The notes below the pieces were generated by a model. That model had not been told where the DNA came from, did not search any database, and saw only the letters and a program-made list of their open reading frames with translations. Below, one piece after another: positions 30,990-56,378 of a DNA stretch of 64,000 nt (positions are counted from its first letter, which is position 1; each line of letters starts with the position of its first letter). The position numbers and the translations under genes were made by a program. Source of the DNA: Eledone cirrhosa (taxonomy: Eukaryota); contig OZ024743.1 in assembly GCA_964016885.1 (NCBI GenBank), positions 16,802,001-16,866,000 of the forward strand, in the 5' to 3' direction.

Positions 30990-30990
<1 letters not shown>

Positions 30991-33900: not shown

Positions 33901-34627
33901 AAAATGGGTGCAGCCCATTATGCCGTGTATGCAAAAAACCACCAGAGACCATTGACCATATAATTTCAATGTGCAGTCCTATAGCTCCAACCGAATACCT
34001 AAACAGGCATGACAGAGCTGCACAATACATACATTGGATAATGTGTAAGCATTTTGACCTGCCCCATCAAAAGAATTGGTGGGAACATCAACCACCTCCC
34101 ATACTTGAAAAAGATCACATCTCAATCTTGTGGAACTTTAGCATCCAAACAGACCGAAAAAAAGATGCAAATAGACCTGATATAATATTGAAGGACTTTC
34201 AAAGGAGGGTATGCCTGCTAATTGATATGTCTGTTCCAATAGACAAGAATGTATCTATAAAAACATTTGAAAAATTGATCAAGTATAAGGACCTGGAGAT
34301 AGAAATTGGAAAAATGTGGAAATTGAGAACTAAAACAATACCAGTGGTTGTAGGCGCTCTGGGAATGATACCTAAGGGGTCTAACGACTACTTATCGCAA
34401 ATCCCAGGAAACCCGCGTATAGGAGAAATACAAAAGATAGTACTAATGGGAACTGCCCATATACTAAGGAAGATCCTGTCAATATAAGTACATCACAAGT
34501 CTAAACACTAAGGATGCATGTGTGAATATGTATGTTCTTTCTTGAACATGGCGGACCTTGTTGTCTCTTGAGGTCACTGGTTGTGACTTGGTGATAACTC
34601 GTATAAACATAAAGCAAGATAAATGCA
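30990..34627 (+). mobile_element. R4/Dong-clade element family A, near full-length, frameshifted
   Basis: ORFs 31105-32217 and 32184-34487 form one R4-type protein. Flanked by (AAT)n. Confidence 0.93.
31105..34487 (+). pseudogene. Family A polyprotein (N-terminal domain, RT, CCHC, PD-(D/E)xK endonuclease), frameshift near 32190
   Basis: [79 protein letters not shown]. Confidence 0.9.
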
Positions 34628-34660
<33 letters not shown>

Positions 34661-34663
<3 letters not shown>

Positions 34664-34960
34664 CTATAACAATACCAGTGGTTGTAGGCGCTCTGGGAAT
34701 GATACCTAAGGGGTCTAACGACTACTTATCGCAAATCCCAGGAAACCCGCGTATAGGAGAAATACAAAAGATAGTACTAATGGGAACTGCCCATATACTA
34801 AGGAAGATCCTGTCAATATAAATACATCACAAGTCTAAACACTAAGGATGCATGTGTGAATATGTATGTTCTTTCTTGAACATGGCGGACCTTGTTGTCT
34901 CTTGAGGTCACTGGTTGTGACTTGGTGATAACTCGTATAAACATAAAGCAAGATAAATGT
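34661..34960 (+). mobile_element. Family A 3'-terminal 300-bp copy
   Basis: Near-identical to 34328-34626, flanked by (AAT)n. Confidence 0.93.
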
Positions 34961-34961
34961 A

Positions 34962-35017
<56 letters not shown>

Positions 35018-38000
35018 GGGAAGAAGAGGCACGAGGTGACGGAGGTCATGAAATCGCCCCCGTAAGTTTTGAATTTTTAACATATTTAAATCATTTGTGA
35101 AATAACAACTCTTAGTACAAATGCTACGTAAAGCACCCGGCTTGAGCCCCAAAAAGTTCGGACCCAAAATATATTGTTATAAGGCTCAAATATTCAAATA
35201 TTCAACTTTGTATTGTACACTGTATATCCAAAAAAGAAAATGGCTATAAATGGAAGAAGAACCCCCCCCCCCCATCCTCCTCTGTCTACACTATATAGAA
35301 CAGCCAAACTCACCAACACCAGAAACTAGATACACCACCCACCTCATCACCTGTGTACACTAAACCACCACCGCTCACTACGGCCATCATTACAACAATA
35401 ATCCCATCACCGCCGCCACCACCCCTTCACTCCTTCACTTCTACCACCGCTACAGCACCATCACTACAGTAATACGGTCACATCACCGCCACCACTGCCT
35501 CGGTATCGACATCACCACCACCACTGTCTCAGTATCGCTACCGCCGCCTGTCTCCCACTTAATCTAGCTGGCTGCTGCCACCACATTATAGAATCCCTAC
35601 TGCTAAAAAAGAGGAAGGCATCAAAATATATAGATAGACTCAAAAGAAAAAAGAAAAAACAAACAACAAAACCAAAGCAGCACAGCAACAACAGCAAAAA
35701 ACGAGAAAAACAAACATAGAAAAAAAAAAAAAAAAAAAAAACCCCTAAAAACGTAAAGAAAATAAGAATGAAGAGAGAAGCAGGTGGACGGACAGAGAAG
35801 AGGGGGAAAAACTAAAGCTTAAAAAACAAAAGCTAAGTCAGACATTCGAACACTACATTACAATGAAACTTATGCTTATTCATTTTTGGGGAACTTTCTG
35901 CCTGTGTGTTTGTTTGTTTATGTGTGTTAGTATACAGCGTGGTGATAATGCCACACAAGGGCCAAGTGGGATGGCGGATCCACAGATGGCTATGTAACTA
36001 TACATTCGCCAATCCTCGATAAGAGTGTTTAAATATCGAACATAAACAGTTCGAATAACGGTGAAATGGAGACTAGAACGTCATGTGACAGACTCTCACC
36101 CAACAGGTGCCCCCTGGCTCAGCAGCAGGAACATGACTGTCAACCAAATACTGCTGATGTTGGAGGAAGAAGAAGAAGGAAAGGGGCCAGAACCAACTGG
36201 ACGAAAGAATTGAATAGAACTGTTATGCAATGCTACCTGAAAAGTAACCCCAAGGAGAGGGGCTACAGGAGACGGATGCATAACATCTGGAACGAGATTG
36301 GTTTATTTAAATTAGATGAACAAAAATTGGCCGGGCAGGCTCGGGTGATAAGAACTAATGGGTGGATAAGCGAGCTGGAACTGGAGGAACTGAGCAGAGA
36401 GAATGGCTTGGAGATGGCGGGTGTAGTATGCCAGACAAGCGAGCCGGTGGGAAATGAAGGTGAGGAGGTCCTGAGAACGGAGGAACCACCCGAAGCAGAC
36501 AATGATCTGAATACTGAGATAAATAATACCTGGAACAGAGATACGGCCACTGAGGAGATGAATGCTGACGGGCTAGGACAAGATTCGGTTGACATCCTAA
36601 ATTTAGTGGTAGATGAATTGAACAATGATAGTGGGAGACCTATGAACCTAAGATTTGTAGACAGGAAAAAGTTAAAAGAAACAACAGCTAAGGTAAACAA
36701 AGTCATCCCATACCTTGAGGCGAGGAGCCTTCACCAGTGCAACAATATCCTCAAAGCAACAGCAAATACGGTGAGGAAACTACTTGGTATAAAAGCGAGA
36801 GGAAACAACAGACAAGAAAGAGCAGAGCCATGGTGGAAGAAGCGACTGAGTGGGCAAATCGGGGAAATGAGAAATGACATAGGAAAGCTTGAGTCACTAC
36901 TGAATGGGACACTAAAAAACATAGGCACTAAAAATAGACTGGAAATAAAATACAAAACTAGGAGTAAAAAGCTAAATATTAACATGGAGGAATTGAAGCA
37001 ACGCATTGTAGCAAAGAGTGCAAAAATCAGGCGATACGAGAACAGAGTCAGTCAGTATAAACAGAACCGCATGTTCGACAACAACCAGAAGATGCTGTTT
37101 GGACAGCTTGAGGGGAAAGAAAGAGGCAACGACTTGATCCCTGGGGCGGAACAAACTAAAACATTCTGGAGAGGAATATGGGAGCAGGATGTTAGACACA
37201 ATGCCCAGGCAGGGTGGATTGAGGCAGTACAGAGGGAGATCGGTGAGCAGGCACAACAACAGACTGATTTGAGTATCACAGTTGAAACTCTTAAGGGGCA
37301 AGCCAAAAAACTAACCAACTGGAAATCACCAGGCCCAGATGGTGTGCAGGGGTATTGGATTAAACATTTAACATCCCTCCACCCGAAGCTGACGGCCATG
37401 TTCAATGACTGCTTGGTGTCGGGTGAGGTGCCAGAGTGGTTGACAAAAGGTACCACAGTTCTGATAATGAAAGACCGAATCAAGGGTAATGATGTTACCA
37501 ACTATAGATATATCACATGTCTGCCCGTAATGTGGAAACTGTTGACGAGCATTGTGTCTGAGGAAATCTACCATCACCTCCACACAAACAACTTGTTCCG
37601 GACGAACAGAAAGGATGCCGAAAGAAGTCACGTGGTACAAAGGACCAGTTGCTTATTGATAATATGGTAATGGGGAATTGCAGGAGGAGACACACTGATC
37701 TTGCCATGGGATGGATAGACTACAGAAAGGCATTTGACATGGTGCCTCATTCCTGGATCACCAAAAGCCTGCAGAACTTCAGGGTGGCAGATAACATCAG
37801 ACAGTTGCTAGGCAGGAGTATGGGGTCCTGGGAGACAGAGCTGACATCAACTGGAGTATCCTTGGGAAGCGTGAAGATCAAGAGAGGTATCTTCCAGGGA
37901 GATAGCCTGTCCCCTCTGTTGTTTGTCCTTGCCCTGATGCCCTTGACCATTATGCTGCGAAAAGTGAGAGCAGGATACAAGTTGGGAAGGGGAGAGCTTA

Positions 38001-39531
38001 CCATCAATCACCTCCTCTTCATGGACGACCTTAAGCTCTTCGGGAAAAGTGAGAAGGAGTTGGATGTGCTTGTTGACACTGTCCGTATTTTCAGCAGTGA
38101 TATATGTATGCAGTTTGGTATTGGTAAATGTGGAGTCATTGTGATGAAGAGGGGTAGGTTGAGCAGAAGTAACGGGATCCAGATACCAACAGGTGAGATG
38201 ATAAAGGAAATTGACTCTGAGGAAGGATACAAGTATTTGGGCGTTCTGGAGGCTGATGGCATAAAGAACAAAAAAATGAAGGAATTGTTAAGAACTGAAT
38301 ACATTCGGAGAGTAAGGAGCGTATTGAAGTCACATCTGAACAGCAGAAATGCCATAAGCGCAGTAAATTCCCGAGCTGTGTCTATTATTAGGTACAGTGC
38401 GGGAATTCTGAGATGGAATGTTGCTGAACAAAAAGAAATGGATAGGAAGACTAGGAAGCTATTGACTATCTACAACATGTTCCACAAGAGGAGTGATGTC
38501 GATAGACTCTACCTAAGGAGATCTGAGGGTGGAAGAGGTCTTATCAGCATAGAGGACTGTGTTCAGATGGAGAAAAACAACCTATACAAATACGTGACCT
38601 ATAGTAAGGAGCCAATGCTCAGAACTGCACTGAAGGAGGGGACAGTAGGCCAGGGGATGTCCAAGGAGGAAATAACATCAAGGAGGAAGAGCAGCCTTAA
38701 GGGAAAATCCCTTCATAGTACCTTCTTTGAGAAAACTGAATTTAGAGATCCACAGACATGGAACTGGTTGAGAAGAGGAGACCTCAAAAAGGCTACAGAA
38801 GGAATGTTAATGGCTGCGCAGGAGCAGGCCCTCAAAACGAAGTGGTTGAAGCACCATATCTACAAGGAGGAGGCTAGCCCACTGTGCAGGATCTGTGGAG
38901 AGAGAGAGGAGACTGTGGCTCACATTGTGTCCGAGTGTAAACACCTAGCCCAGACCCACTATAAGGGCTGGAGACACGATGTGATGGGCAGGGTGATCCA
39001 CTGGCACCTGTGCAAAGTAAACAATCTACCACATTCTGAGAAATGGTATGAGCATAGGCCAGAGGCGGTGATGGAGAACAATCAGGTGAAGGTGCTGTGG
39101 GATTTTAGGATACAGACGGACAAAAAACTGGAACACAATAGACCTGACCTGGTGGTTGTGGACAAAGAAAAAAGATCGTGCCTGATTGTGGATGTGGCCT
39201 GCCCGTTCGACACGAGAGTGCAAGAGAAGGAGAGGGAGAAAATTAACCGATACCAGGACCTAAAGTGGGAGGTGAAAAGAATTTGGAACTGCCATGAAGT
39301 CAAAGTGATCCCCATTGTCATAGGCGCACTGGGGACTATCTCCAAAAGCTTCCAGGGATGGTTAAAGAAAATCGGCCTCTTCACGCTTTTTGGAACGCTT
39401 CAAAAGGCATGCTTGCTTGGAACAGCAAGAACCCTCCGATACGTCCTGAATATCTGAGGCTGCAGGTAGTGGCTTGATATTCAATCCAACGGACTTTCCA
39501 GTTAACCAACATCAATGACTGAGATTCAAGG
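35018..39531 (+). mobile_element. R4/Dong-clade element family B, full-length copy 1
   Basis: Starts GGGAAGAAG after (AAT)n, about 1.05-kb leader, ORF 36066-39457, 3' end GAGATTCAAGG then AATAACAAC(AAT)n. Confidence 0.94.
36066..39457 (+). pseudogene. Family B polyprotein (RT plus restriction-like endonuclease), single frameshift at about 37597
   Basis: ORFs 36066-37670 and 37649-39457 join as LF[P][20 protein letters not shown] if one C is added. Confidence 0.9.
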
Positions 39532-39546
39532 AATAACAACAACAAC

Positions 39547-39616
<70 letters not shown>

Positions 39617-42600
39617 GGGAAGAAGACGCACGAGGTGACGGAGGTCATGAAATCGCTCCCGTAAGTTTTGAATTTTTAACATATTTAAATCATTTGTGAA
39701 ATAACAACTCTTAGTACAAATGCTACGTAAAGCACCCGGCTTAAGCCCAAAAAAATTCGGACCCAAAATATATTGTTATAAGGCTCAAATATTCAAATAT
39801 TCAACTTTGTATTGTACACTGTATATCCAAAAAAGAAAATGGCTATAAACGGAAGAAGAAGAACCCCCCCCCCCCTCCTCTCCTCTGGCTACACTATATA
39901 GGACAGCTAAACTCACCAACACCAGAAACTAGATACACCACCCACCCCATCATCTGTGTACACTAAACACAACAGCCAGATAACGACATTTTCACCTTCA
40001 CCGCCACCGCTCACTGCGGCCATCATTACCACCACTGTCCCATCACCGCCGCCGCCACCCCTTGACTCCTTCACTACTGCCGCCGCTACAGCACCAATAC
40101 TACAGTAATACGGTCACATCACCGCCACCACTGCCTCGGTAGCGACATCACCACCACCACTGTCTCAGTATCGCTACCGCCGCCAGTCTCCCACTTCCCC
40201 CTGCTGGCTGCTACTTCCACATTATAGAATTCCTACTACTAACAAAGAGGAAGACATCAAAATATATAGATAGACTCAAAAGAAAAAAGAAAAAACAAAC
40301 AACAAAACCAAAGCAGCACAGCAACAACAGCAAAAAACGAGAAAAACAAACAGAGAAAAACAAAAACAAAAAAAGAAACCCCAAAAACGTAAAGAAAATA
40401 AGAATGAAGAGAGAAGCAGGCGGACGGACAGAGAAGAGGGGGGAAAAAGTAAAAATTAAAAAACAAAAACTAAGTCAGACATTCGAACACTACATTACAA
40501 TGAAACTTATGCTTATTCATTTTTGGGGCCCTTTCTGCCTGTGTGTTTGTTTGTTTATGTGTGTTAGTATACAGCGTGGTGATAATGCCACACAAGGGCC
40601 AAGTGGGATGGCGGATCCACAGATGGCTATGTAACTATACATTCGCCAATCCTCGATAAGAGTGTTTAAATATCGAACATAAACAGTTCGAATAACGGTG
40701 AAATGGAGACTAGAACGTCATGTGACAGACTCTCACCCAACAGGTGCCCCCTGGCTCAGCAGCAGGAACATGACTGTCAACCAAATACTGCTGATGTTGG
40801 AGGAAGAAGAAGAAGGAAAGGGGCCAGAACCAACTGGACGAAAGAATTGAATAGAACTGTTATGCAATGCTACCTGAAAAGTAACCCCAAGGAGAGGGGC
40901 TACAGGAGACGGATGCATAACATCTGGAACGAGATTGGTTTATTTAAATTAGATGAACAAAAATTGGCCGGGCAGGCTCGGGTGATAAGAACTAATGGGT
41001 GGATAAGCGAGCTGGAACTGGAGGAACTGAGCAGAGAGAATGGCTTGGAGATGGCGGGTGTAGTATGCCAGACAAGCGAGCCGGTGGGAAATGAAGGTGA
41101 GGAGGTCCTGAGAACGGAGGAACCACCCGAAGCAGACAATGATCTGAATACTGAGATAAATAATACCTGGAACAGAGATACGGCCACTGAGGAGATGAAT
41201 GCTGACGGGCTAGGACAAGATTCGGTTGACATCCTAAATTTAGTGGTAGATGAATTGAACAATGATAGTGGGAGACCTATGAACCTAAGATTTGTAGACA
41301 GGAAAAAGTTAAAAGAAACAACAGCTAAGGTAAACAAAGTCATCCCATACCTTGAGGCGAGGAGCCTTCACCAGTGCAACAATATCCTCAAAGCAACAGC
41401 AAATACGGTGAGGAAACTACTTGGTATAAAAGCGAGAGGAAACAACAGACAAGAAAGAGCAGAGCCATGGTGGAAGAAGCGACTGAGTGGGCAAATCGGG
41501 GAAATGAGAAATGACATAGGAAAGCTTGAGTCACTACTGAATGGGACACTAAAAAACATAGGCACTAAAAATAGACTGGAAATAAAATACAAAACTAGGA
41601 GTAAAAAGCTAAATATTAACATGGAGGAATTGAAGCAACGCATTGTAGCAAAGAGTGCAAAAATCAGGCGATACGAGAACAGAGTCAGTCAGTATAAACA
41701 GAACCGCATGTTCGACAACAACCAGAAGATGCTGTTTGGACAGCTTGAGGGGAAAGAAAGAGGCAACGACTTGATCCCTGGGGCGGAACAAACTAAAACA
41801 TTCTGGAGAGGAATATGGGAGCAGGATGTTAGACACAATGCCCAGGCAGGGTGGATTGAGGCAGTACAGAGGGAGATCGGTGAGCAGGCACAACAACAGA
41901 CTGATTTGAGTATCACAGTTGAAACTCTTAAGGGGCAAGCCAAAAAACTAACCAACTGGAAATCACCAGGCCCAGATGGTGTGCAGGGGTATTGGATTAA
42001 ACATTTAACATCCCTCCACCCGAAGCTGACGGCCATGTTCAATGACTGCTTGGTGTCGGGTGAGGTGCCAGAGTGGTTGACAAAAGGTACCACAGTTCTG
42101 ATAATGAAAGACCGAATCAAGGGTAATGATGTTACCAACTATAGATATATCACATGTCTGCCCGTAATGTGGAAACTGTTGACGAGCATTGTGTCTGAGG
42201 AAAACTACCATCACCTCCACACAAACAACTTGTTCCGGACGAACAGAAAGGATGCCGAAAGAAGTCACGTGGTACAAAGGACCAGTTGCTTATTGATAAT
42301 ATGGTAATGGGGAATTGCAGGAGGAGACACACTGATCTTGCCATGGGATGGATAGACTACAGAAAGGCATTTGACATGGTGCCTCATTCCTGGATCACCA
42401 AAAGCCTGCAGAACTTCAGGGTGGCAGATAACATCAGACAGTTGCTAGGCAGGAGTATGGGGTCCTGGGAGACAGAGCTGACATCAACTGGAGTATCCTT
42501 GGGAAGCGTGAAGATCAAGAGAGGTATCTTCCAGGGAGATAGCCTGTCCCCTCTGTTGTTTGTCCTTGCCCTGATGCCCTTGACCATTATGCTGCGAAAA

Positions 42601-44168
42601 GTGAGAGCAGGATACAAGTTGGGAAGGGGAGAGCTTACCATCAATCACCTCCCCTTCATGGACGACCTTAAGCTCTTCGGGAAAAGTGAGAAGGAGTTGG
42701 ATGTGCTTGTTGACACTGTCCGTATTTTCAGCAGTGATATATGTATGCAGTTTGGTATTGGTAAATGTGGAGTCATTGTGATGAAGAGGGGTAGGTTGAG
42801 CAGAAGTAACGGGATCCAGATACCAACAGGTGAGATGATAAAGGAAATTGACTCTGAGGAAGGATACAAGTATTTGGGCGTTCTGGAGGCTGATGGCATA
42901 AAGAACAAAAAAATGAAGGAATTGTTAAGAACTGAATACATTCGGAGAGTAAGGAGCGTATTGAAGTCACATCTGAACAGCAGAAATGCCATAAGCGCAG
43001 TAAATTCCCGAGCTGTGTCTATTATTAGGTACAGTGCGGGAATTCTGAGATGGAATGTTGCTGAACAAAAAGAAATGGATAGGAAGACTAGGAAGCTATT
43101 GACTATCTACAACATGTTCCACAAGAGGAGTGATGTCGATAGACTCTACCTAAGGAGATCTGAGGGTGGAAGAGGTCTTATCAGCATAGAGGACTGTGTT
43201 CAGATGGAGAAAAACAACCTATACAAATACGTGACCTATAGTAAGGAGCCAATGCTCAGAACTGTACTGAAGGAGGGGACAGTAGGCCAGGGGATGTCCA
43301 AGGAGGAAATAACATCAAGGAGGAAGAGCAGCCTTAAGGGAAAATCCCTTCATAGTACCTTCTTTGAGAAAACTGAATTTAGAGATCCACAGACATGGAA
43401 CTGGTTGAGAAGAGGAGACCTCAAAAAGGCTACAGAAGGAATGTTAATGGCTGCGCAGGAGCAGGCCCTCAAAACGAAGTGGTTGAAGCACCATATCTAC
43501 AAGGAGGAGGCTAGCCCACTGTGCAGGATCTGTGGAGAGAGAGAGGAGACTGTGGCTCACATTGTGTCCGAGTGTAAACACCTAGCCCAGACCCACTATA
43601 AGGGCTGGAGACACGATGTGATGGGCAGGGTGATCCACTGGCACCTGTGCAAAGTAAACAATCTACCACATTCTGAGAAATGGTATGAGCATAGGCCAGA
43701 GGCGGTGATGGAGAACAATCAGGTGAAGGTGCTGTGGGATTTTAGGATACAGACGGACAAAAAACTGGAACACAATAGACCTGACCTGGTGGTTGTGGAC
43801 AAAGAAAAAAGATCGTGCCTGATTGTGGATGTGGCCTGCCCGTTCGACACGAGAGTGCAAGAGAAGGAGAGGGAGAAAATTAACCGATACCAGGACCTAA
43901 AGTGGGAGGTGAAAAGAATTTGGAACTGCCATGAAGTCAAAGTGATCCCCATTGTCATAGGCGCACTGGGGACTATCTCCAAAAGTTTCCAGGGATGGTT
44001 AAAGAAAATCGGCCCCTTCACGCTTTTTGGAACGCTTCAAAAGGCATGCTTGCTTGGAACAGCAAGAACCCTCCGATACGTCCTGAATATCTGAGGCTGC
44101 AGGTAGTGGCTTGATATTCAATCCAACGGACTTTCCAGTTAACTAACATCAATGACTGTGATTCAAGG
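39617..44168 (+). mobile_element. R4/Dong-clade element family B, full-length copy 2
   Basis: Tandem with copy 1, coding offset 4637 bp. Same termini. Confidence 0.94.
40703..44094 (+). pseudogene. Family B polyprotein, same frameshift at about 42234
   Basis: ORFs 40703-42307 and 42286-44094. Only about four amino-acid differences from copy 1 in the supplied translations. Confidence 0.9.
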
Positions 44169-44451
44169 AATAACAATAACAATAATAATAATAATAATAA
44201 TGTTTTCTTTATTAACCACAAGGGTTCACATAAAGTAGACATTAAGGACAGTGCAGGACAATGCAGGACGGTACAAATGGGCATTTCTGCGTGTAAAAAA
44301 CAAAAACAGAGGATGTAACAAAAAATAACAATGAAAAATTCCCCAATAGGGGGCAGACTTCGGAGGGACATTTGTGGTGAAAGCCCAGTAAAATGCCACA
44401 ATGACCCTGACCACCAAGTCAAGTGCCCTCTCCCAGTTTTCCAACTTTAAT

Positions 44452-47400
44452 TTACAGATATATACTCAGTGTAGGCCCATTCACTCGGGCCATTCTTGCT
44501 TCTCTCACCCATCTTTCAACAAAATGCTGGGAAGAGAGCACTTCCCTCTCTACTCTGATTTTCCTTTTCAAATGAAATTTGAAAAAGTCAATCAGAGCAT
44601 CACCGAAGAGGTAAGTGCTCGTCTTCAGTCCTTTCAAACGTGTCCACCATACTATCTCTTTCACCATGGCCACCAGGCAGATAAAAACTGCCTGCCCTTC
44701 CCGGCTAAAGGAGGGGGGCGGGGCAATCCTCACGATGGACTCAGATGATAGCCGGATCCGTCCTAAACGCGACAGCAGGTGTTCGACATAAACCCACAAG
44801 TCAGCAATTTTCGGACACTGGACGAGTGCGTGCAGGACGGTTTCGTCGCCCTGCGCGCATCTCGGACATGCCCGGCTGACGGCACCTCCATGCCTGCAGA
44901 GTTTATCCCGAACTGGCAAGGCTCCTCGGTAGCACTGCCAGGCCAGAGATTTCTGGAAGTTGTCCATAGGCCCTGGCCCGAAAGTTCTTCCGAAGAGATT
45001 GGCTAGTTGATATTCGTCGACGCCTAGAGTTTCCCCAAGTACGTCGTCGCTCTTCCCCTCCACTAATCCTATATAGAACGCCGAGGTGGAGTTTCCACCG
45101 ATCACATTGCCCGATTGTTCGAGGGCTGTGAGCGCCTGAAGACATTCCAGTCTCCAGGCGCTCCCTCTCGGTCTTCGCTTGACCCAGGACTGCAGCTCCT
45201 TCAAGGAAACGAGCTGGGGAAAAACGCGTCTAGCAAACGGCGACCACACCTGATCACCGTCGAGGAAGAGGTGGAGATGTCGTAGCCTGAGCGCGTGCCT
45301 GCGCATCATCAGCCACGGCATGCCCAGCCCTCCACGTAGCGGGTGTTGACAACAGATGGACCGCCTGACCATCGGAGCACGTCCCTTCCACAAAAAGCGA
45401 AAGAGCAAACGCTCCAGCGCAGTCAGGCGAGGCTTAGGACAAGGTACGACGGTCAGGCGGTAGCAGATGACAGACGCGATGTACGCGTTAGCCACCTTCG
45501 CTCGACCTTTCAGGGATAGATTCCTCTCCGCCCATTTCTGGGTGAGAGAAGCCACCCTGCTCGTCACCTTGTCCCAGTTTTTGTCCGTCTGGAGGTCCGG
45601 ACCGAACCAGACCCCTAGCAATTTAACCGGTCCGTCCGTCCAGCGCCCGACGACGATGTTGGACGGCATTGACCTGCCTCTCCAGGTGCCGAGCTGCAGG
45701 CCCACTGACTTTTCCTGGTTGATCATTGCTCCTGTCACCGCTTCGTATTCTCTTAGTGTAGAGCCGATCGCCTCGATGTGTTTGGCGTTCGACACCACTA
45801 CGGTGACATCGTCCGCATATGCTGACACGGATCTTCCGCATCCTAGTTCGCGCGGGACTCCCCTCAACGTCTCCAGTTTGTGCAGTAATGGCTCGAGAGT
45901 CAATACGTACAAGAGGGACGAGAGGGGACATCCTTGGCGGACCGAGCGCATGAAGTTGAACGGTTCCGACAGGTGACCGTTCACTCTCACCACAGAGCAG
46001 ATGTCGCTGTGCATGGCAGCGATCCAGCCTCTGAAGACGGGCCCAAAGCCAGCCGCCCTCAGGACTGCCGCTAGGTAACGATGGTCGACCCTATCGAAAG
46101 CTTTCGACTGATCTAAATTGATCGAGGACCCACCCGTGCCAGGTTCCCTAGCTACCCTCTCTACGATGTATCGCATGAGGTGGAGGTTGTCGTGGATGGA
46201 TCTGTCGGGAATGGCGCATGTCTGCGCCTCTCCCACCAGACCACCAACGACAAGCGCCAACCTCTTTGCTAGCACCTTGGCCAAAATCTTAAACTCTGTG
46301 TTTAGCAGAGTTATGGGCCGGAAATTGTCTATGTTATCCCCCTTGTTCGGATCCTTTCTCAGCAGTGCCACCGCTCCTCGGCTCACAGAACTGGGAATTC
46401 TCCCATTCTGTTGCCAGTTGCAGTAGACGTCCGCCAAGAGGCCTCCGAACAAGTCTGGCATCTGTACGTAAAGTTCATAGGGCAGACCATCCAAACCAGG
46501 CGATTCACCCCTTGTGCAGCCAGTCATTGCCTCCCTTACTTCAGCGGCTGTTATCGGCTTTTCGCAACACTTCGCCTCAGTGGCCGAGAGCCGCGGCAGT
46601 CCGTCGAGGTAGACACTAAAGTCCATCCCTCTACCCGGCCCACCGCTGCCCCCGAACAGCTGAGCGAAGTGTCGCTGAAAAGCTTCACACATTTGCCCGG
46701 GATCGAGTAGCATGCGCCCGTCGTGGTCCACCAAAGACCGGATCGTGGCTTTGTTGCCACGACGCGCCTCCGCCACTCGGGCCCATTGAACGGCTTTCGT
46801 CCCCTCGTGTCTGAGAGCACGCACCCTTGCTCTGACAACGCAGCCTTCGTGCTTTGCATTGAAAAATTGGTCATGGGCCAATTTCGCCGCAAGCACGTCG
46901 GTCGCAATGCCTTTGCTAAGCGCCTCGTCTAATTTTCTAACTAGTTCTCCCTCTGCTCTATTTTTCTCTATTGCTAAAGCCTTACTAAACCTAATCGATT
47001 CTATTCTAATCGCTCTTTTCAGAGCAAACCACCACTTGTTGTTGACGATGGCCCCCGTCAACGCCCGCTTAACTAGTTCGCTAATCCGGTCTCTGTAGGC
47101 CTTGCGCGCTGGTAAGGACGCGTTTAGCTTCCAGTAGCCGGATCCTCGTCTATGAAGCCTATCTAAGTCAAGCACACAGATCACGAATTTGTGGTCCGTG
47201 TAGCTGACTATCTTGAATTGTGGACAGCCTATGCTAGACCTATCTATTTCCCTACAAAATACTCTATCTAGATATGATCTGGATGACCCTATGCGGTTTG
47301 TCCAAGTCCACATTGGCACATTAGGGAAATCCAATCGGTACCTGTCAGACAGTTCAAAACGCCTGAGCAGGTTGGTGAGGCTCTTGCACCCTCCACCCCT

Positions 47401-47871
47401 ATCCGCTAATCCCACACAGTCCCAGCGTGCATCTAAGATCCCGTTCCAGTCGCCCACTAACACTAAAGAGCGGGACGTTCCAAGAAAGGTCTCCAGACGC
47501 CGGAAGAAATCAGGCCGCCCTGCTCCTGTCGGGGCATAGACGGCGACTAGCCTGCAAGCTTGCCCGTCTCCGCTGGTCACGTCCTGCACCACCAGCTTAC
47601 CCTCTGGGTCCAAGAAGATGGCCCGTATGGCGAGATCCAAACCTCTCCGAAAAAGCACAGCAACTCCTCCACCGGATCCAGGACGGCTGGGAGATGCGTA
47701 CACATCGTAGCCGCCGAAGATCGGTGCGAAGGCCCGTGCTTCGGAGATTCTGGTCTCGCTGATGGCCACTACATCTATGTTTAGTGACCTGAGGTCGTTG
47801 AGCAGGTGACCCTGCTTCCATGACAACCCCAAGCCACGCGCATTTATGCTGCCTATTCTGAGTGAGGTCAT
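44452..47871 (-). CDS. Intact ORF2: APE endonuclease, reverse transcriptase and C-terminal zinc finger (1139 aa)
   Basis: SINARGL, AISETR, LVGDWN, SYLDRVF, TDHK (APE). NFRPITLLN, LDQSKAFDRV, VRQGCPLS, YADD (RT). CPRC..ETVLHALVQC. Confidence 0.95.
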   Translation of the reverse strand: MTSLRIGSINARGLGLSWKQGHLLNDLRSLNIDVVAISETRISEARAFAPIFGGYDVYASPSRPGSGGGVAVLFRRGLDLAIRAIFLDPEGKLVVQDVTSGDGQACRLVAVYAPTGAGRPDFFRRLETFLGTSRSLVLVGDWNGILDARWDCVGLADRGGGCKSLTNLLRRFELSDRYRLDFPNVPMWTWTNRIGSSRSYLDRVFCREIDRSSIGCPQFKIVSYTDHKFVICVLDLDRLHRRGSGYWKLNASLPARKAYRDRISELVKRALTGAIVNNKWWFALKRAIRIESIRFSKALAIEKNRAEGELVRKLDEALSKGIATDVLAAKLAHDQFFNAKHEGCVVRARVRALRHEGTKAVQWARVAEARRGNKATIRSLVDHDGRMLLDPGQMCEAFQRHFAQLFGGSGGPGRGMDFSVYLDGLPRLSATEAKCCEKPITAAEVREAMTGCTRGESPGLDGLPYELYVQMPDLFGGLLADVYCNWQQNGRIPSSVSRGAVALLRKDPNKGDNIDNFRPITLLNTEFKILAKVLAKRLALVVGGLVGEAQTCAIPDRSIHDNLHLMRYIVERVAREPGTGGSSINLDQSKAFDRVDHRYLAAVLRAAGFGPVFRGWIAAMHSDICSVVRVNGHLSEPFNFMRSVRQGCPLSSLLYVLTLEPLLHKLETLRGVPRELGCGRSVSAYADDVTVVVSNAKHIEAIGSTLREYEAVTGAMINQEKSVGLQLGTWRGRSMPSNIVVGRWTDGPVKLLGVWFGPDLQTDKNWDKVTSRVASLTQKWAERNLSLKGRAKVANAYIASVICYRLTVVPCPKPRLTALERLLFRFLWKGRAPMVRRSICCQHPLRGGLGMPWLMMRRHALRLRHLHLFLDGDQVWSPFARRVFPQLVSLKELQSWVKRRPRGSAWRLECLQALTALEQSGNVIGGNSTSAFYIGLVEGKSDDVLGETLGVDEYQLANLFGRTFGPGPMDNFQKSLAWQCYRGALPVRDKLCRHGGAVSRACPRCAQGDETVLHALVQCPKIADLWVYVEHLLSRLGRIRLSSESIVRIAPPPSFSREGQAVFICLVAMVKEIVWWTRLKGLKTSTYLFGDALIDFFKFHLKRKIRVEREVLSSQHFVERWVREARMARVNGPTLSIYL

Positions 47872-47906
47872 GTTTAAAATAGAGTGGAAAAGATGGGAAA
47901 GACCAC

Positions 47907-50008
47907 TTACCGTACTTTTGGTAGAGGAGGGATGGTTTTTACATCCCTTTTCACTTGATCGTCTGGTGAAGGGACCGTTGAATCGTACCTTCGGCTGGTC
48001 GTCGGTTCTTCTAAGAGAATGTCTGAGTATACTCTTCGATTGATGGTTCCTCCTAGGTCCCTGAAATCACCAACTGCGTTGGGGAATTTCGTTTTAATAT
48101 TTGTGTATTGTTTCTGTGCTATTTTTAGCAGTCTTATGTTAGTTGGCGTTTTGATTGGTGCTGGTATTATGTAGTCCTGTTGTGAAATGTCTGTGTGTTC
48201 AATTATGTAAGTCATTAGTTTCTTGTTGTGTGTATTTATTGCCGTGCATTTGTTTTTCTGGGGGTGGGGTGTGGTTCTGCTATTTTCTTGTCGTTGTTGC
48301 TGGGTGTGTGTGTTTTGTTGTTGTGTTTGCGATGTTGGTGCTTGTGGTGGTGGTGTTGAAGGTGTTGTTGGCGGTGGGGTTGTCGCCGGTGGTGATGGTG
48401 GCGCTAGTGTGGGTGGTGATGGTGTTGGTGTTGTTGCTGCTGTGGGTCTCTTTGCAGTAGACTTTACCCTTTTCTCATTTCTTTCCTCCCTTTTCAAAGG
48501 CGACGATGCGCTGCTTCTGCGTTTGTGCCTTCTTACGACCTTTTGCCATCTCTCTCCCACCTCACACTCCATGTCTGATTCTGTGAGGTCGGGGAGGGGT
48601 ACCAGCTCCACTCTTTCACTTGTTGTTGTTGATGATGTTTGCACTGGAGTCTCTGTTGCAGCTGCATTTGGTATTGCTGTTGTTGTTGTTAGTATTTCCA
48701 CTGCTGCTGCTGTTTTTGATTTCCGTGGAGTGGGTATGGGTGCCACGGGCCTATCGTTCCTGGTTGCCGCTTGTCCTGTTGCTGGTAGCCGTGGAGCCGG
48801 ATTCGGAAGGAGGGGGGTTTTCTCCTTTCTCAGGGTCTTCTCGTTGCAGAAGGCCCTGAGGTGAGTCTTCGATCCACAGCGAAAGCATTTCGGGCGTTTG
48901 CCCTCAACACTTATGGGCAGTTGAGTGCCGTTATCGAAGTCTATCACATCCGGGATAGCTTCGATGCACTCCTGGTTGGTTTGGATTAGCATCTCAATGG
49001 AGGAGCCGACCCAATCTTCTCTTACTTTTTTCTGTACTTGCAGTACAGTTGTTTTGTCCTCGATTCCGACGAGGACAGACGCGGCCAGCCAAGAAGCGGT
49101 CATTCCGGGGGGGGGGGGACGTGGGTCAGTTTGACCCTCACAATTTTTTGCCCACAGTAGGAGGGCACCAACACCATTTCCTCGCTCCTTAGGGTCACTA
49201 CTGATTGGGCCTTTGGCTCCTGGGGTGTGGCAAAAAGTACGTCTACGGTGGCATATTTTTTGCCTCGGGTGATGTGCGTTTTCCGCTGCCACACAGACCC
49301 CAAGGCTTTTTGTATTTGGGCCTCTGTGGCTCTTTCCACCCTACGGGATTTTGTACTTACTGTACGGTACGTGACCGTACAGTGCTCTTGGGTTTCGAAA
49401 AATTTTTCCGCTGTCTTGCAGATTGCTCGGTGTCCGTTCTGTGTCACCATCTTCTTCGCTTCCTCTAATTCCTCATTTGTTATGAGGATTGTTTCCAAGT
49501 TTTTCGCAATACCTGCAAATGAGATTGGTTTTTCTCTGGTGTTGTTGTTGTCGTCAGAGCTGCTGGTACTTTTGTTGTTGCTGCAGGTACTACGACTACT
49601 GCCTCCGCCGCTGTTGCTGTGGTTGTTGTTGGTGTTGCTGCTGCTAATGCTGTTGTTGTTTATGCTGCTGGTGATGCTGTTGCGGCTGCTACTGTTGTTT
49701 TCATTGTCACTGTTGCTGTTGTTATTACGGCTGCTACTGCTATTATTCCTGACGTCAGACGAATGAACTGGGTTTTCGTATTTCCCGCACACCTGTTTCG
49801 TCGCTGTCGTCGTCGTCGTGGAGAAACCTTGCACGCTTTGCACGAGACTTTTCTTTTCTTTCGTCACTTGCGAAAGAGAAGGGAGGGAGAGAGACACATT
49901 TAAAGAAGGGAGGGAGAGAGACAATCTTCTCTCTGCTGTAGTGATGATTGAGGAAGAAGAAGACGGAATGAGTGGGAGTGACGTATGAAATTTCTTTTTC
50001 GTAGCCAT
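47907..50008 (-). CDS. ORF1 (gag-like nucleic-acid-binding protein), apparent frameshift in a C12 run
   Basis: ORFs 49100-50008 and 47907-49292 join at the homopolymer 49107-49118. CFRCGSKTHLRAFC knuckle, Ser/Asn-rich and Pro/Thr-rich low-complexity segments. Confidence 0.85.
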
Positions 50009-50222
50009 GTTGTTTTTTGTTTAAAATGAATATTGGGTACAAAACCCCAATAACTGGTTATTTAACCCCGAAGGGCCAAATAACGGACAGAAAGACCCCT
50101 CTCACGAGGAGGAGGGTGTCTTTATCAACAATTTGGTTCAAGTTTTAAACAATTTACAATTGTTTTAACGGTTAAAAATTACTATACCTTACAGAGCCGA
50201 GCCTCCGTCAACCATGGCATTC

Positions 50223-50266
<44 letters not shown>

Positions 50267-50525
50267 TTTCTTTATTAACCACAAGGGTTTACATAAAGTA
50301 GACATTAAGGACAGTGCAGGACAATGCAGGACGGTACAAATGGGCATTTCTGCGTATAAAAAACAAAAACAGAGGATGTAACAAAAATAACAATGAAAAT
50401 AACAATGAAAAATTCCCCAATAGTGGGGAGACTTCGGAGGGACATTTGTGGTGAAAGCCCAGTAAAAAGCCACAATGACCCTGACCACCAAGGCAAGTGC
50501 CCTCTCCCAGTTTTCCACCTTTAAT

Positions 50526-53500
50526 TTACAGATATATACACAGAGTAGGCCCATTCACTCGGGCCATTCTTGCTTCTCTCACCCATCTTTCAACAAAATG
50601 CTGGGAAGAGAGCACTTCCCTCTCTACTCTGATTTTCCTTTTCAAATGAAATTTGAAAAAGTCAATCAGAGCATCACCGAAGAGGTAAGTGCTCGTCTTC
50701 AGCCCTTTCAAACGTGTCCACCATACTATCTCTTTCACCATGGCCACCAGGCAGATAAAAACTGCCTGCCCTTCCCGGCTAAAGGAGGAGGGCGGGGCAA
50801 TCCTCACGATGGACTCAGATGATAGCCGGATCCGTCCTAAACGCGACAGCAGGTGTTCGACATAAACCCACAAGTCAGCAATTTTCGGACACTGGACGAG
50901 TGCGTGCAGGACGGTTTCGTCGCCCTGCGCGCATCTCGGACATGCCCGGCTGACGGCACCTCCATGCCTGTAGAGTTTATCCGGAACTGGCAAGGCTCCT
51001 CGGTAGCACTGCCAGGCCAGAGATTTCTGGAAGTTGTCCATAGGCCCTGGCCCGAAAGTTCTTCCGAAGAGATTGGCTAGTTGATTTTCGTCGACGCCTA
51101 GAGTTTCCCCAAGTACGTCGTCGCTCTTCCCCTCCACTAATCCTCTATAGAACGCCGAGGTGGAGTTTCCACCGATCACATTGCCCGATTGGTCGAGGGC
51201 TGTGAGCGCCTGAAGACATTCCAGTCTCCAGGCGCTCCCTCTCGGTCTTCGCTTGACCCAGGACTGCAGCTCCGTCAAGGAAACGAGCTGGGGAAAAACG
51301 CGTCTAGCAAACGGCGACCACACCTGATCACCGTCGAGGAAGAGGTAGAGATGTCGTAGCCTGAGCGCGTGCCTGCGCATCATCAGCCACGGCATGCCCA
51401 GCCCTCCACGTAGCGGGTGTTGACAACAGATGGACCGCCTGACCATCGAAGCACGTCCCTTCCACAAAAAGCGAAAGAGCAAACGCTCCAGCGCAGTCAG
51501 GCGAGGCTTAGGACAAGGTACGACGGTTAGGCGGTAGCAGATGACAGACGCGATGTACGCGTTAGCCACCTCCGCTCGACCTTTCAGGGATAGCTTCCTC
51601 TCCGCCCATTTCTGGGTGAGAGAAGCCACCCTGCTCGTCACCTCGTCCCAGTTTTTGTCCGTCTGGAGGTCCGGACCGAACCAGACCCCTAGCAGTTTAA
51701 CCGGTCCGTCCGTCCAGCGCCCGACGACGCTGTTGGACGGCATGGACCTGCCTCTCCAGGTGCCGAGCTGCAGGCCCACTGACTTTTCCTGGTTGATCAT
51801 TGCTCCTGTCACCGCTTCGTATTCTCTTAGTGTAGTGCCGATCGCCTCGATGTGTTTGGCGTTCGACACCACTACGGTGACATCGTCCGCATATGCTGAC
51901 ACGGATCTTCCGCATCCTAGTTCGCGCGGGACTCCCCTCAACGTCTCCAGTTTGTGCAGTAATGGCTCGAGCGTCAATACGTACAAGAGGGACGAGAGGG
52001 GACATCCTTGGCGGACCGAGCGCATGATGTTGAACGGTTCCGACAGGTGACCGTTCACTCTCACCACAGAGCAGATGTCGCTGTGCATGGCAGCGATCCA
52101 GCCTCTGAAGACGGGCCCAAAGCCAGCCGCCCTCAGGACTGCCGCTAGGTAACGATGGTCGACCCTATCGAAAGCTTTCGACTGATCTAAATTGATCAAG
52201 GACCCACCCGTGCCAGGTTCCCTAGCTACCCTCTCTACGATGTATCGCATGAGGTGGAGGTTGTCGTGGATGGATCTGTCGGGAATGGCGCATGTCTGCG
52301 CCTCTCCCACCAGACCACCAACGACAAGCGCCAACCTCTTTGCTAGCACCTTGGCCAAAATCTTAAACTCTGTGTTTAGCAGAGTTATGGGCCGGAAATT
52401 GTCTATGTTATCCCCCTTGTTCGGATCCTTTCTCAGCAGTGCCACCGCTCCTCGGCTCACAGAACTGGGAATTCTCCCGTTGTGTTGCCAGTTGCAGTAG
52501 ACGTCCGCCAAGAGGCCTCCGAACAAGTCTGGCATCTGTACGTAAAGTTCATAGGGCAGACAATCCAAACCAGGCGATTTACCCCTTGTGCAGCCAGTCA
52601 TTGCCTCCCTTACTTCAGCGGCTGTTATCGGCTTTTCGCAACACTTCGCCTCAGTGGCCGAGAGCCGCGGCAGTCCGTCGAGGTAGACACTAAAGTCCAT
52701 CCCTCTACCCGGCCCCCCGCTGCCCCCGAACAGCTGAGCGAAGTGTCGCTGAAAAGCTTCACACATTTGCCCGGGATCGAGTAGCATGCGCCCGTCGTGG
52801 TCCACCAAAGACCGGATCGTGGCTTTGTTGCCACGACGCGCCTCCGCCACTCGGGCCCATTGAACGGCTTTCGTCCCCTCGTGTCTGAGAGCACGCACCC
52901 TAGCTCTGACAACGCAGCCTTCGTGCTTTGCATTGAAGAATTGGTCAAGGGCCAATTTCGCCGCAAGCACGTCGGTCGCAATGCCTTTGCTAAGCGCCTC
53001 GTCTAATTTTCTAACTAGTTCTCCCTCTGCTCTATTTTTCTCTATTGCTAAAGCCTTACTAAACCTAATCGATTCTATTCTAATCGCTCTTTTCAGAGCA
53101 AACCACCACTTGTTGTTGACGATGGCCCCCGTCAACGCCCGCTTAACTAGTTCGCTAATCCGGTCTCTGTAGGCCTTGCGCGCTGGTAAGGACGCGTTTA
53201 GCTTCCAGTAGCCGGGTCCTCGTCTATGAAGCCTATCTAGGTCAAGCACACAGATCACGAATTTGTGGTCCGTGTAGCTGACTATCTTGAATTGTGGACA
53301 GCCTATGCTAGACCTATCTATTTCCCTACAAAATACTCTATCTAGATATGATCTGGATGACCCTATGCGGTTTGTCCAAGTCTACATTGGCACATTCGGG
53401 AAATCCAATCGGTACCTGTCAGACAGTTCAAAACGCCTGAGCAGGTTGGTGAGGCTCTTGCACCCTCCACCCCTATCCGCTAATCCCACACAGTCCCAGC

Positions 53501-53945
53501 GTGCATCTAAGATCCCGTTCCAGTCGCCCACTAACACTAAAGAGCGGGACGTTCCAAGAAAGGTCTCCAGACGCCGGAAGAAATCAGGCCGCCCTGCTCC
53601 TGTCGGGGCATAGACGGCCACTAGCCTGAAAACTTGCCCGTCTCCGCTGGTCACGTCCAGCACCACCAGCTTACCCTCTGGGTCCAGGAAGATGGCCCGT
53701 ATGGCGAGATCCAAACCTCTCCGAAAAAGCACAGCAACTCCTCCACCCGATCCAGGACGGCTGGGAGATGCGTACACATCGTAGCCGCCGAAGATCGGTA
53801 CGAAGGCCCGTGCTTCGGAGATTCTGGTCTCGCTGATGGCCACTACATCTATGTTTAGTGACCTGAGGTCGTTGAGCAGGTGACCCTGCTTCCATGACGA
53901 CCCCAAGCCACGCGCATTTATGCTGCCTATTCTGAGTGAGGTCAT
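50526..53945 (-). pseudogene. ORF2 of copy C with one premature stop (TGG>TAG at 53382-53384)
   Basis: ORFs 53382-53945 and 50526-53258 are in frame and match copy B. Confidence 0.92.
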
Positions 53946-53980
53946 GTTTAAAATAGAGTGGAAAAGATGGGAAAGACCAC

Positions 53981-56088
53981 TTACCGTACTTTTGGTAGAG
54001 GAGGGATGGTTTTTACATCCCTTTTCACTTGATCGTCTGGTGAAGGGACCGTTGAATCGTCCCTTCGGCTGGTCGTCGGCTCTTCTAAGAGAATGTCTGA
54101 GTATACTCTTCGATTGATGGTTCCTCCTAGGTCCCTGAAATCACCAACTGCGTTGGGGAATTTCGTTTTAATGTTTGTGTATTGTTTCTGTGCTATTTTT
54201 AGCAGTCTTATGTTAGTTGGCGTTTTGATTGGTGCTGGTATTATGTAGTCCTGTTGTGAAATGTCTGTGTGTTCAATTATGTAAGTCATTAGTTTCTTGT
54301 TGTGTGTATTTATTGCCGTGCATTTGTTTTTCTGGGGGTGGGGTGTGGTTCTGCTATTTTTCTTGTCGTTGTTGCTGGGTGTGTGTGTTTTGTTGTTGTG
54401 TTTGCGATGTTGGTGCTTGTGGTGGTGGTGTTGAAGGTGTTGTTGGCGGTGGGGTTGTCGCCGGTGGTGATGGTGGCGCTAGTGTGTGTGGTGATGGTGT
54501 TGGTGTTGTTGCTGCTGTGGGTCTCTTTGCAGTAGACTTTACCCTTTTCTCATTTCTTTCCTCCCTTTTCAAAGGCGACGATGCGCTGCTTCTGCGTTTG
54601 TGCCTTCTTACGACCTTTTGCCATCTCTCTCCCACCTCACACTCCATGTCTGATTCTGTGAGGTCGGGGAGGGGTACCAGCTCCACTCTTTCACTTGTTG
54701 TTGTTGATGATGTTTGCACTGGAGTCTCTATTGCAGCTGCATTTGGTATTGCTGTTGTTGTTGTTAGTATTTCCACTGCTGCTGCTGTTTTTGATTTCCG
54801 TGGAGTGGGTATGGGTGCCACGGGCCTATCGTTCCTGGTTGCCGCTTGTCCTGTTGCTGGTAGCCGTGGAGCCGGATTCGGAAGGAGGGGGGTTTTCTCC
54901 TTTCTCAGGGTCTTCTCGTTGCAGAAGGCCCTGAGGTGAGTCTTCGATCCACAGCGAAAGCATTTCGGGCGTTTGCCCTCAACACTTATGGGCAGTTGAG
55001 TGCCGTTATCGAAGTCTATCACATCCGGGATAGCTTCGATGCACTCCTGGTTGGTTTGGATTAGCATCTCAATGGAGGAGCCGACCCAATCTTCTCTTAC
55101 TTTTTTCTGTACTTGCAGTACAGTTGTTTTGTCCTCGATTCCGACGAGGACAGACGCGGCCAGCCAAGAAGGGGTCATTCCGGGGGGGGGGGGGGGGGAC
55201 GTGGGTCAGTTTGACCCTCACAATTTTTTGCCCACAGTAGGAGGGCACCAACACCATTTCCTCGCTCCTTAGGGTCACTACTGATTGGGCCTTTGGCTCC
55301 TGGGGTGTGGCAAAAAGTACGTCTACGGTGGCATATTTTTTGCCTCGGGTGATGTGCGTTTTCCGCTGCCACACAGACCCCAAGGCTTTTTGTATTTGGG
55401 CCTCTGTGGCTCTTTCCACCCTACGGGATTTTGTACTTACTGTACGGTACGTGACCGTACAGTGCTCTTGGGTTTCGAAAAATTTTTCCGCTGTCTTGCA
55501 GATTGCTCGGTGTCCGTTCTGTGTCACCATCTTCTTCGCTTCCTCTAATTCCTCATTTGTTATGAGGATTGTTTCCAAGTTTTTCGCAATACCTGCAAAT
55601 GAGATTGTTTTTTCTCTGCTGTTGTTGTTGTCGTCAGAGCTGCTGGTACTTTTGTTGTTGCTGCAGGTACTACGACTACTGCCTCCGCCGCTGTTGCTGT
55701 GGTTGTTGTTGGTGTTGCTGCTGCTAATGCTGTTGTTGTTTATGCTGCTGGTGATGCTGTTGCGGCTGCTACTGTTGTTTTCATTGTCACTGTTGCTGTT
55801 GTTATTACGGCTGCTACTGCTATTATTCCTGACGTCAGACGAATGAACTGGGTTTTCGTATTTCCCGCACACCTGTTTCGTCGCTGTCGTCGTCGTCGTG
55901 GAGAAACCTTGCACGCTTTGCACGAGACTTTTCTTTTCTTTCGTCACTTGCGAAAGAGAAGGGAGGGAGAGAGACACATTTAAAGAAGGGAGGGAGAGAG
56001 ACAATCTTCTCTCTGCTGTAGTGATGATTGAGGAAGAAGAAGACGGAATGAGTGGGAGTGACGTATGAAATTTCTTTTTCGTAGCCAT
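53981..56088 (-). pseudogene. ORF1 of copy C with two homopolymer frameshifts
   Basis: C17 run at 55182-55198 and an extra A at about 54356-54361 split the ORF. Confidence 0.85.
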
Positions 56089-56302
56089 GTTGTTTTTTGT
56101 TTAAAATGAATATTGGGTACAAAACCCCAATAACTGGTTATTTAACCCCGAAGGGCCAAATAACGGACAGAAAGACCCCTCTCACGAGGAGGAGGGTGTC
56201 TTTATCAACAATTTGGTTCAAGTTTTAAACAATTTACAATTGTTTTAACGGTTAAAAATTACTATACCTTACAGAGCCGAGCCTCCGTCAACCATGGCAT
56301 TC

Positions 56303-56365
<63 letters not shown>

Positions 56366-56378
56366 AAGAAGAAGAAGA
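56303..56378. repeat. (AAT)n(GAA)n compound microsatellite, right boundary of the cluster
   Basis: Directly visible. Confidence 0.97.

Follow-up and report, generated by a model that had tools for sequence, protein, structure and literature searches.

According to PMC4494074, target specificity is common among Tx1 elements, some of which specialise in microsatellites. Kibi (TC), Koshi (TTC) and the crocodilian TTCC and TTTC families treated there are Tx1-group APE-RT LINEs with the microsatellite on both sides, in line with what the original prediction states of Kibi and Koshi, and the same text takes an identical repeat on both flanks in >20% of copies as the criterion for microsatellite specificity. 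Dong has TAA repeats as its reported target in the section of PMC3812793 used here. For human L1, nicking of the T-rich strand, a poly(A) tail and a role of the APE hairpin loop in shaping target choice are given in the excerpted part of PMC1950540. In Octopus vulgaris, the annotation counts 80 L1-Tx1 families (13 called recently active, 421 insertions) and abundant Dong-R4 elements, and the word "target" is absent from the searched text and supplement of that report (PMC13282606). The family described below may be one of these L1-Tx1 families. No paper on a Tx1 target with an ATT/AAT unit was found in a search that left aside the target lists in the figure and supplement of PMC4494074.

The window, i.e., the whole 64,000-nucleotide stretch of Eledone cirrhosa DNA analysed here, contains a Tx1-group LINE copy (c2) of 6021 nt at 44202-50222 on the minus strand. 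Its 5' UTR (50009-50222) begins with GAATGC and folds better than shuffled sequences (z -3.5). ORF1 precedes ORF2 and lies in two pieces, one N-terminal of 302 aa (49100-50008) and one C-terminal of 398 aa with a CCHC zinc knuckle (47907-49103). They align with residues 58-203 and 211-282, respectively, of the single ORF1 of the sister element L023 and thus map onto it in order. The intact ORF2 of 1139 aa that had been predicted is an open frame at 47871-44452, with an APE endonuclease, an RT (YADD) and a C-terminal zinc finger. Pfam matches are PF03372, PF00078 and PF13966 (N-terminal APE plus RT), and by sequence comparison the catalytic residues of the APE are kept (N10, E39, Y112, D141, N143, D202, H227). 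In the 3' UTR (44202-44451), folding does not exceed that of shuffled sequences (z 0.48); AATAAA lies at 44213-44208, six bases before the element end, and there is no poly(A) tail.

ORF2 of c2 aligns end to end with that of the U2-inserted Keno-type L001 at 460 bits and 30% identity, versus 174 bits for human L1 ORF2, with one anchor each for Keno-type and L1. These comparisons support the predicted L1/Tx1 affinity and place the element closer to Tx1 than to vertebrate L1. It shares with L001, whose 3' end joins U2, two ORFs with an ORF2 of similar size (~1,145 aa in L001), the CCHC knuckle in ORF1 and AATAAA near the 3' end; it differs in that Keno has U2 as its target, a short poly(A) is present in L001 and the two occupy separate branches in both RT trees. 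In the RT trees (FastTree for the later one; no named L1, Tx1L, Kibi or Koshi rows), the c2 lineage is a clade of its own with support 1.0, apart from Keno, and deep nodes are weak (0.39-0.50). Homology to human L1 extends over the APE and RT (residues 5-855), with the same catalytic residues and equal hairpin-loop length, and L1 ORF2 structures are matched at E 3e-50. Among named relatives, proteins of Argonauta come closest. Atlas searches placed ORF2 in generic LINE clusters only, and the ORF1 piece gave matches <0.9. Three other identities were considered and rejected: R4/Dong, because an N-terminal APE is present; Keno, because there is no U2 insertion and no Rfam family match anywhere in the window; and a Koshi-type TTC target, because the flanks are ATT and the 15 AG arrays of the window are empty.

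Two further full-length copies lie on the same strand: c1 (23103-29089), which is 95.5% identical to c2 and has several ORF2 frameshifts, and c3 (50265-56302), which is 99.0% identical and has a stop at ORF2 codon 188 and a frameshifted ORF1. As predicted, all three share the same terminal bases, starting with GAATGC and ending with AATAAAGAAA(T/A)C. An older, 5'-truncated copy with many indels, c4 (61687-63378, plus strand), is ~76% identical to c2.

All three full-length copies are bounded by (AAT)n. An interrupted array at 23045-23102 is the 3' flank of c1 and the left edge of the cluster, and (AAT)9 at 29090-29116 is its 5' flank. The array at 44169-44201 is common to the 3' ends of c2 and of a Dong-like element, which meet tail to tail. 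(AAT)14 at 50223-50264 is both the 5' flank of c2 and the 3' flank of c3, and (AAT)11 followed by (AAG)14 at 56303-56378 is the 5' flank of c3 and the right cluster edge; the (TTC)14 next to c3 thus lies 11 units away from the junction. Read along the elements, the 5' flanks of c1, c2 and c3 have 9, 14 and 11 ATT units with ATT as the last unit, and the 3' flanks have 9, 7 and 14 perfect units with ATT as the first. One register therefore holds throughout, each junction reading ATT-element-ATT. The 3' end of c4 also lies in (ATT)n, tail to tail with a Dong-like piece, so that the repeat is present at 3/3 full-length 5' junctions and 4/4 3' junctions. The 5' end of c4 is rearranged, with a short inverted piece at 61639-61673, and has no repeat. 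Hence, three of the four copies in the window, at one locus, have the same repeat on both flanks. The 3' repeat is found again under another organism label: in sequencing run X4, a 1137-nt contig continues from the 3' UTR across each of the 15 flanking bases supplied.

Between c1 and c2, at 29117-44170 on the plus strand, are four R4/Dong-like LINEs of two families separated by (AAT)n: ~29117-30930 (truncated), 30990-34630, 35018-39560 and 39617-44170, with a short 3' piece at 34662-34964. Two more Dong-like 3' pieces with (TAA)5 between them occupy 63399-64000 on the minus strand. These neighbours carry a PD..D..K motif (RLE-type C-terminus), which we take to be the mark of R4/Dong. The label is based on this motif, the TAA flanks and PMC3812793, not on a tree. 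The repeat reported for Dong is also the one that flanks the c2 family, and in the cluster the R4/Dong-like LINEs use the same arrays as the Tx1-group copies; unlike c2, they have a restriction-like endonuclease, insert on the opposite strand and are 21% alike in ORF2 over the RT.

The original prediction held that the 5' repeats are more than a tail can explain. This applies to c1 and c3 and not to c2, since the 5' array of c2 is the 3' array of c3 and could be its tail. Upstream of c1 and c3, there is no element of the family, so the repeat there is not the family's own tail; these are the two independent 5' junctions in repeat, both at a single locus. Moreover, the array at the 5' end of c1 is followed at once by the 5'-truncated Dong-like copy; given TAA repeats as the reported target of Dong (PMC3812793), this array was likely a genuine target. 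Outside the elements (28,352 bases), 75 arrays of at least four units were counted (53 AT, 15 AG, 0 AAT). None of these 75 non-AAT arrays holds an insertion of the family, and the absence of AAT from them indicates that the flank pattern is not due to chance.

A preference for (ATT)n/(AAT)n at this locus is thus supported, and with it the local part of the predicted (TTA)n specificity: the two independent 5' junctions, the single register and the 75 empty arrays speak for it, and c4, one of four copies, speaks against it with its repeat-free 5' end. The sample is a single locus. We consider it probable that c2 belongs to an abundant Tx1-group family whose insertions favour (AAT)n and lie on the opposite strand from the R4/Dong-like LINEs, and that pairing of a read-through (AUU)n RNA with the nicked strand likely helps.

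The same arrays could instead be the family's own 3' tail, generated by slippage, with AT-rich DNA as a loose target and stacking at a hot spot as the source of the 5' repeats. All AAT arrays of the window touch an element and none is free, as expected if they are element tails; c4 has the repeat at its 3' end only, and the 5' repeat of c2 is the 3' repeat of c3. The family is also very abundant and mostly 5'-truncated, features more typical of loosely targeted LINEs. Copies would have landed in one another's tails and in those of Dong, with short RNA-DNA pairing of the kind proposed for RTE elements; that RTE tails correlate with target sites (PMC6007223) was counted for the slippage explanation. 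This explanation nevertheless appears unlikely. Both c1 and c3 presuppose an AAT array already there on the 5' side, in one register, whereas the 75 arrays made of other units received no copy, and repeated landing in AAT already amounts to a preference.

Most of the cluster could have arisen by gene conversion or by unequal exchange among (AAT)n arrays, in which case the three copies would not be independent. c2 and c3 are adjacent, a C-run in ORF1 is lengthened in both, and the c2 letter is also found in c3 at 9 of the 11 listed ORF1-region sites, so the pair may go back to a duplication shortly after insertion; likewise, two full-length Dong-like copies lie side by side, 98.6% alike and with one frameshift in common. 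However, c3 lacks 24 of the 25 listed differences that c2 has in ORF2, which excludes a late duplication, c1 lies 15 kb off with four other elements in between, and even a duplication would presuppose an initial copy flanked by repeat at either end. We regard exchange as the main builder of the cluster as improbable. It is more improbable still that (TTA)n belongs to the element's own 5' end through upstream transcript starts, both repeats having been carried to non-repeat sites. The same start base after the repeat in 3/3 full-length copies would fit, but repeat lengths vary among copies, and no duplicated unique sequence brackets the cluster, whose right edge is the compound (AAT)(AAG) array.

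The c2 family is young. Beyond the window, it reaches very high abundance in one sequencing run, and its copies in the sequencing-run contigs are mostly 5'-truncated. The runs listed as carrying the family include no RNA run, which has no bearing on its expression. Among the X1 contigs, 516/49,233 extend past an element end (both ends pooled), with 1,945 further loose ends. Runs with a share <0.2 were left out of the read overlay, as were the Hi-C runs X22 and X23 (1 and 2 matching reads). Neither viral contigs nor prokaryote genome contigs contained the 3'-end motif (0 matches each), and a scan of viral contigs at the protein level found none. Of the 22 distant loci from a metagenome scan, none has an ATT/AAT array of at least 5 units.

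The sister lineage ends in AATAAAG and has no ATT repeat at 16 of the 17 junction stretches scanned for repeats, with no ATT array in any of the 17; the repeat is hence specific to c2's family. It forms head-to-tail arrays without repeat between copies, so a microsatellite is not needed for tandem copies; a target gene was sought in these arrays and not found. In the APE, the hairpin loop is 9 residues long in the c2 clade and 11-14 in the sister clade. The c2 loop has the length of L1's and not of Tx1L's, which counts against strict target specificity. An octopod Tx1 branch with an altered APE loop that is a true (AAT)n specialist is a tentative proposal; such a branch would owe its very high copy number, which is unusual for a site-specific LINE, to arrays targeted and extended by Dong and entered on the opposite strand, two unrelated endonucleases having converged on one microsatellite and supplying each other with targets.

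For the preferred reading, insertion into (AAT)n with the help of pairing, the following steps are proposed. The strand nicked by the APE would be that of (AAT)n and the site probably a T-A step, as every junction reads ATT-element-ATT. Since only six bases separate AATAAA from the element end, cleavage of the transcript would fall within the repeat that follows, and the RNA would retain a few units of AUU. By base pairing with the nicked (AAT)n at its 3' end, these units would start reverse transcription; this would account for the lack of a poly(A) and strengthen the choice of target. Joining of the second strand in phase would hide any target duplication as extra repeat units. The same pattern could result from APE specificity or from RNA-target pairing. 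The scheme would differ from L1, where the T-rich strand is nicked and a poly(A) tail is made (PMC1950540), as c2 would use (AAT)n as its primer strand and shows no poly(A). It would also differ from Kibi, Koshi and the crocodilian families in the unit, ATT/AAT rather than the pyrimidine-rich TC, TTC, TTCC and TTTC (PMC4494074, same portions).

If the preference holds genome-wide, it would add a new repeat unit to the Tx1 targets and help to explain octopod LINE hot spots. It would also be another APE/RLE convergence on one target, with opposite strands used in the same arrays; Keno and Utopia are a case of such convergence on U2. A young, abundant family, close relatives whose sequences are known and a sister lineage without the repeat offer a direct test of loop versus RNA-target pairing. 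The value as an insertion tool is modest because AAT repeats are common and c2 is damaged.

The prediction that c2 is potentially active is not supported. Among the three full-length copies, ORF2 is open in c2 alone, but ORF1 is frameshifted by a C12 run (49107-49118). Compared with the family majority, ORF2 has 18 non-synonymous and 7 synonymous differences, and its residues at 456, 333, 583, 96 and 106 occur in 0/64-71 homologues. With ORF1 broken and private changes at conserved ORF2 sites, we rejected retrotransposition competence; judged from its sequence, c2 is probably a decaying full-length copy that is no longer active. The run is C7 in c1 and C17 in c3, and it is 5 bases shorter than that of c2 in run X4 and in 3 X1 contigs.

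Self-comparison of the window gave three full-length copies of a 6.0-kb Tx1-type LINE, all on the minus strand: c1 (23103-29089), c2 (44202-50222), the copy flagged originally, and c3 (50265-56302). c2 is 99.0% identical to c3 and 95.5% to c1. All three begin with GAATGC and end with AATAAAGAAA(T/A)C. The 5' flanks hold 9 (c1), 14 (c2), and 11 (c3) ATT units and each ends with ATT, and the 3' flanks open with 9, 7, and 14 perfect ATT units, respectively. Of these copies, c2 alone has an ORF2 open over 1139 aa; the ORF2 of c3 is interrupted by a stop at codon 188, and that of c1 by frameshifts. The original description of three copies with a common start and end, ATT on both sides, and an open ORF2 in c2 was accurate on recheck. 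It had also been argued that a tail cannot explain the 5' repeats. As c2 and c3 are arranged head to tail, the 5' repeat of c2 is the 3' repeat of c3; hence, this argument holds for c1 and c3 only.

The interval from c1 to c2 is occupied by four plus-strand LINEs of a different type, which belong to two families and are each bounded by (AAT)n; two further pieces are located at the end of the window. These LINEs contain a reverse transcriptase (RT) and, towards the C terminus, a PD..D..K motif, which we take to be of the R4/Dong type. TAA repeats are the reported Dong target and, in the accessible part of PMC3812793, are listed for Dong only; Dong-R4 elements are abundant in octopus (accessible part of PMC13282606). 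From the motif, the TAA flanks, and both sources, the neighbours are labelled R4/Dong-like. Two adjacent copies (35018-39560 and 39617-44170) are 98.6% alike with the same frameshift before the RT, which suggests a local duplication or a shared defective source. At 34328-34996, the 3' end of the second family forms a 334-base tandem duplication, both units ending in (AAT)n. A short degenerate AAT/AAC stretch (19466-19494, minus strand) resembles a Dong-like 3' tail without an element body. An inverted repeat pair (10700-12531 and 12994-14808; 1.85 kb) is 90.7% alike.

The proposed (TTA)n specificity stood as a local preference. Two independent 5' junctions share one register, a known TAA-targeting type occupies the same arrays, and the 3' repeat was seen in a second run too. 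Outside the elements, 28,352 bases of the window contain 75 arrays of at least 4 units (53 AT, 15 AG, 3 AC, 4 others, 0 AAT), and none holds an element copy. Against targeting stand the single locus, the lack of a free AAT array in the window, and c4, an older copy (61687-63378; ~76% alike, many indels). On its 3' side, (ATT)n abuts the 3' end of a Dong-like element. On its 5' side, in contrast, a small inverted segment gives way to unique AT-rich sequence, and c4 therefore counts against strict targeting. The inverted segment (61639-61673) derives from the 3' part of ORF2, with a geometry unlike usual twin-priming. The c2/c3 pair possibly arose by an early duplication, as c2 has its letter in common with c3 at 9 of the 11 listed ORF1-region variants. 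The case for (AAT)n targeting is moderate. Overall, this is a genuine LINE of the Tx1 group, for which we consider an (AAT)n preference fairly probable; its arrays also hold Dong-like elements, inserted on the other strand.

The c2 ORF2 comprises an endonuclease domain (APE) with its catalytic residues kept, an RT, and a zinc finger. It matches human L1 ORF2 with 174 bits (residues 5-855) and the best full-length metagenome locus with 460 bits over the whole length. The 3' end of this locus is joined to U2 snRNA, an insertion which defines Keno (accessible part of PMC4494074). Hence, with one anchor each, c2 falls on the Tx1 side, as originally proposed. At 5815-5977 of the Keno-type locus, the element and U2 snRNA stand in one metagenome contig; a U2-like piece also lies near the 5' end. 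In RT trees that lack named rows for Tx1L, Kibi, and Koshi, c2 groups with the homologous proteins P0001, P0207, and P0225 (support 1.0), and the wider clade (support 1.0) is separate from Keno; deeper nodes are weak. Among named proteins, those of Argonauta hians are nearest (59-66% identity), which makes an octopod the likely host. In Patella caerulea, eleven related ORF2 proteins (P0054, P0215-P0224) carry nearly consecutive locus tags on a single chromosome, which suggests another tandem Tx1 array.

The junction register is ATT-element-ATT, none of the four copies has poly(A), and AATAAA sits six bases before the element end. If insertion follows the usual course of target-primed reverse transcription, the (AAT)n strand would be nicked first, probably at a T-A step, to which the register points. 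RNA is cleaved 10-30 bases past AAUAAA. Transcript cleavage would thus land within the repeat downstream, leaving the RNA with AUU units able to pair with the nicked strand. The Dong-like elements run the other way, so each type would prime on a different strand of a shared array. The APE hairpin loop of c2 (anchors T189-S199) has 9 residues, equal to L1, whereas Tx1L has 11 and the sister clade 11-14. This loop influences target choice but does not set it alone (accessible part of PMC1950540). The 5' UTR (50005-50222) folds into stable hairpins (z -3.5).

Tx1 families are known in TC, TTC, TTCC, and TTTC repeats (accessible part of PMC4494074). A full-text literature search, the figures and supplements of that paper and repeat libraries aside, gave none with an ATT/AAT target, nor did the accessible parts of PMC4640811, PMC8869645, PMC3747384, PMC8967140, PMC13282606, and PMC6007223; prior annotation of the family is quite possible. 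If the preference holds, this is a known kind of microsatellite-targeting Tx1 LINE with ATT/AAT as a further unit.

The stretch or part of it was found in 20 listed sequencing runs from 16 studies, with at least half its words in 8. In run X1, 49,233 contigs match, and the summed depth over ORF2 is ~5x that over the 5' part; this profile, which is no copy number, is consistent with a family that is very abundant and mostly 5'-truncated. The contig overlay on c2 included 15 flank bases per side, and 516 X1 contigs run over an element end, a total that pools the two ends. None of the ten listed X1 loose ends lies at a junction; 1,945 others exist.

The claim that c2 is potentially active was not supported. 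Its ORF1 is in two pieces, mapping in order to an ORF1 that is undivided in a sister element, and the break lies at a C-run of 12 bases (7 in c1, 17 in c3). Sequencing run X4 and 3 X1 contigs carry a C-run shorter by 5 bases, and the c2 length may be a homopolymer error in assembly. From the 40 differences of c2 listed among 419, we used 39 and dropped 46291 (other letter in the minority). ORF2 holds 25 of them, 24 absent from c3; 18 change a residue and 7 are silent, near the 3:1 site ratio. The c2 residue is absent from homologues at ORF2 positions 456 (0/71), 333 (0/69), 583 (0/71), 96 (0/66), and 106 (0/64); at several others, it is common among them. Judged by sequence, the differences are taken as post-insertion decay, amounting to 0.7% or more in ORF2, and as evidence against activity independent of the ORF1 break; c2 is probably inactive. 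As this decay is within the 'recently active' bound of 2% or less (accessible part of PMC13282606), the family may be active though c2 probably is not. Copy-to-copy pN/pS is 0.60 (c1, c3) and 0.42 (c4).

A sister lineage (40-42% identity) is present as animal DNA within a bacterial MAG (G001, contigs C3-C19; loci L023 and L025-L047), which is a contamination flag for that genome. Its 85 matches there (41-42% identity), over 50 of them full-length, are intact LINEs of several subfamilies in head-to-tail arrays with a period of 6.4-6.85 kb. Of the 8 junctions read, 7 have AATAAAG directly abutting the following copy. No microsatellite, tRNA, or Rfam target was found between these copies, and 17 stretches scanned held no ATT array; hence, the ATT association is specific to the c1-c4 family. 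The sister LINE arrays may be self-targeted, or they may be telomere/centromere-like. By eye, hairpin-like CCCCTC...GAGGGG motifs resembling those of the c2 5' UTR are seen in sister-lineage 5' UTRs.
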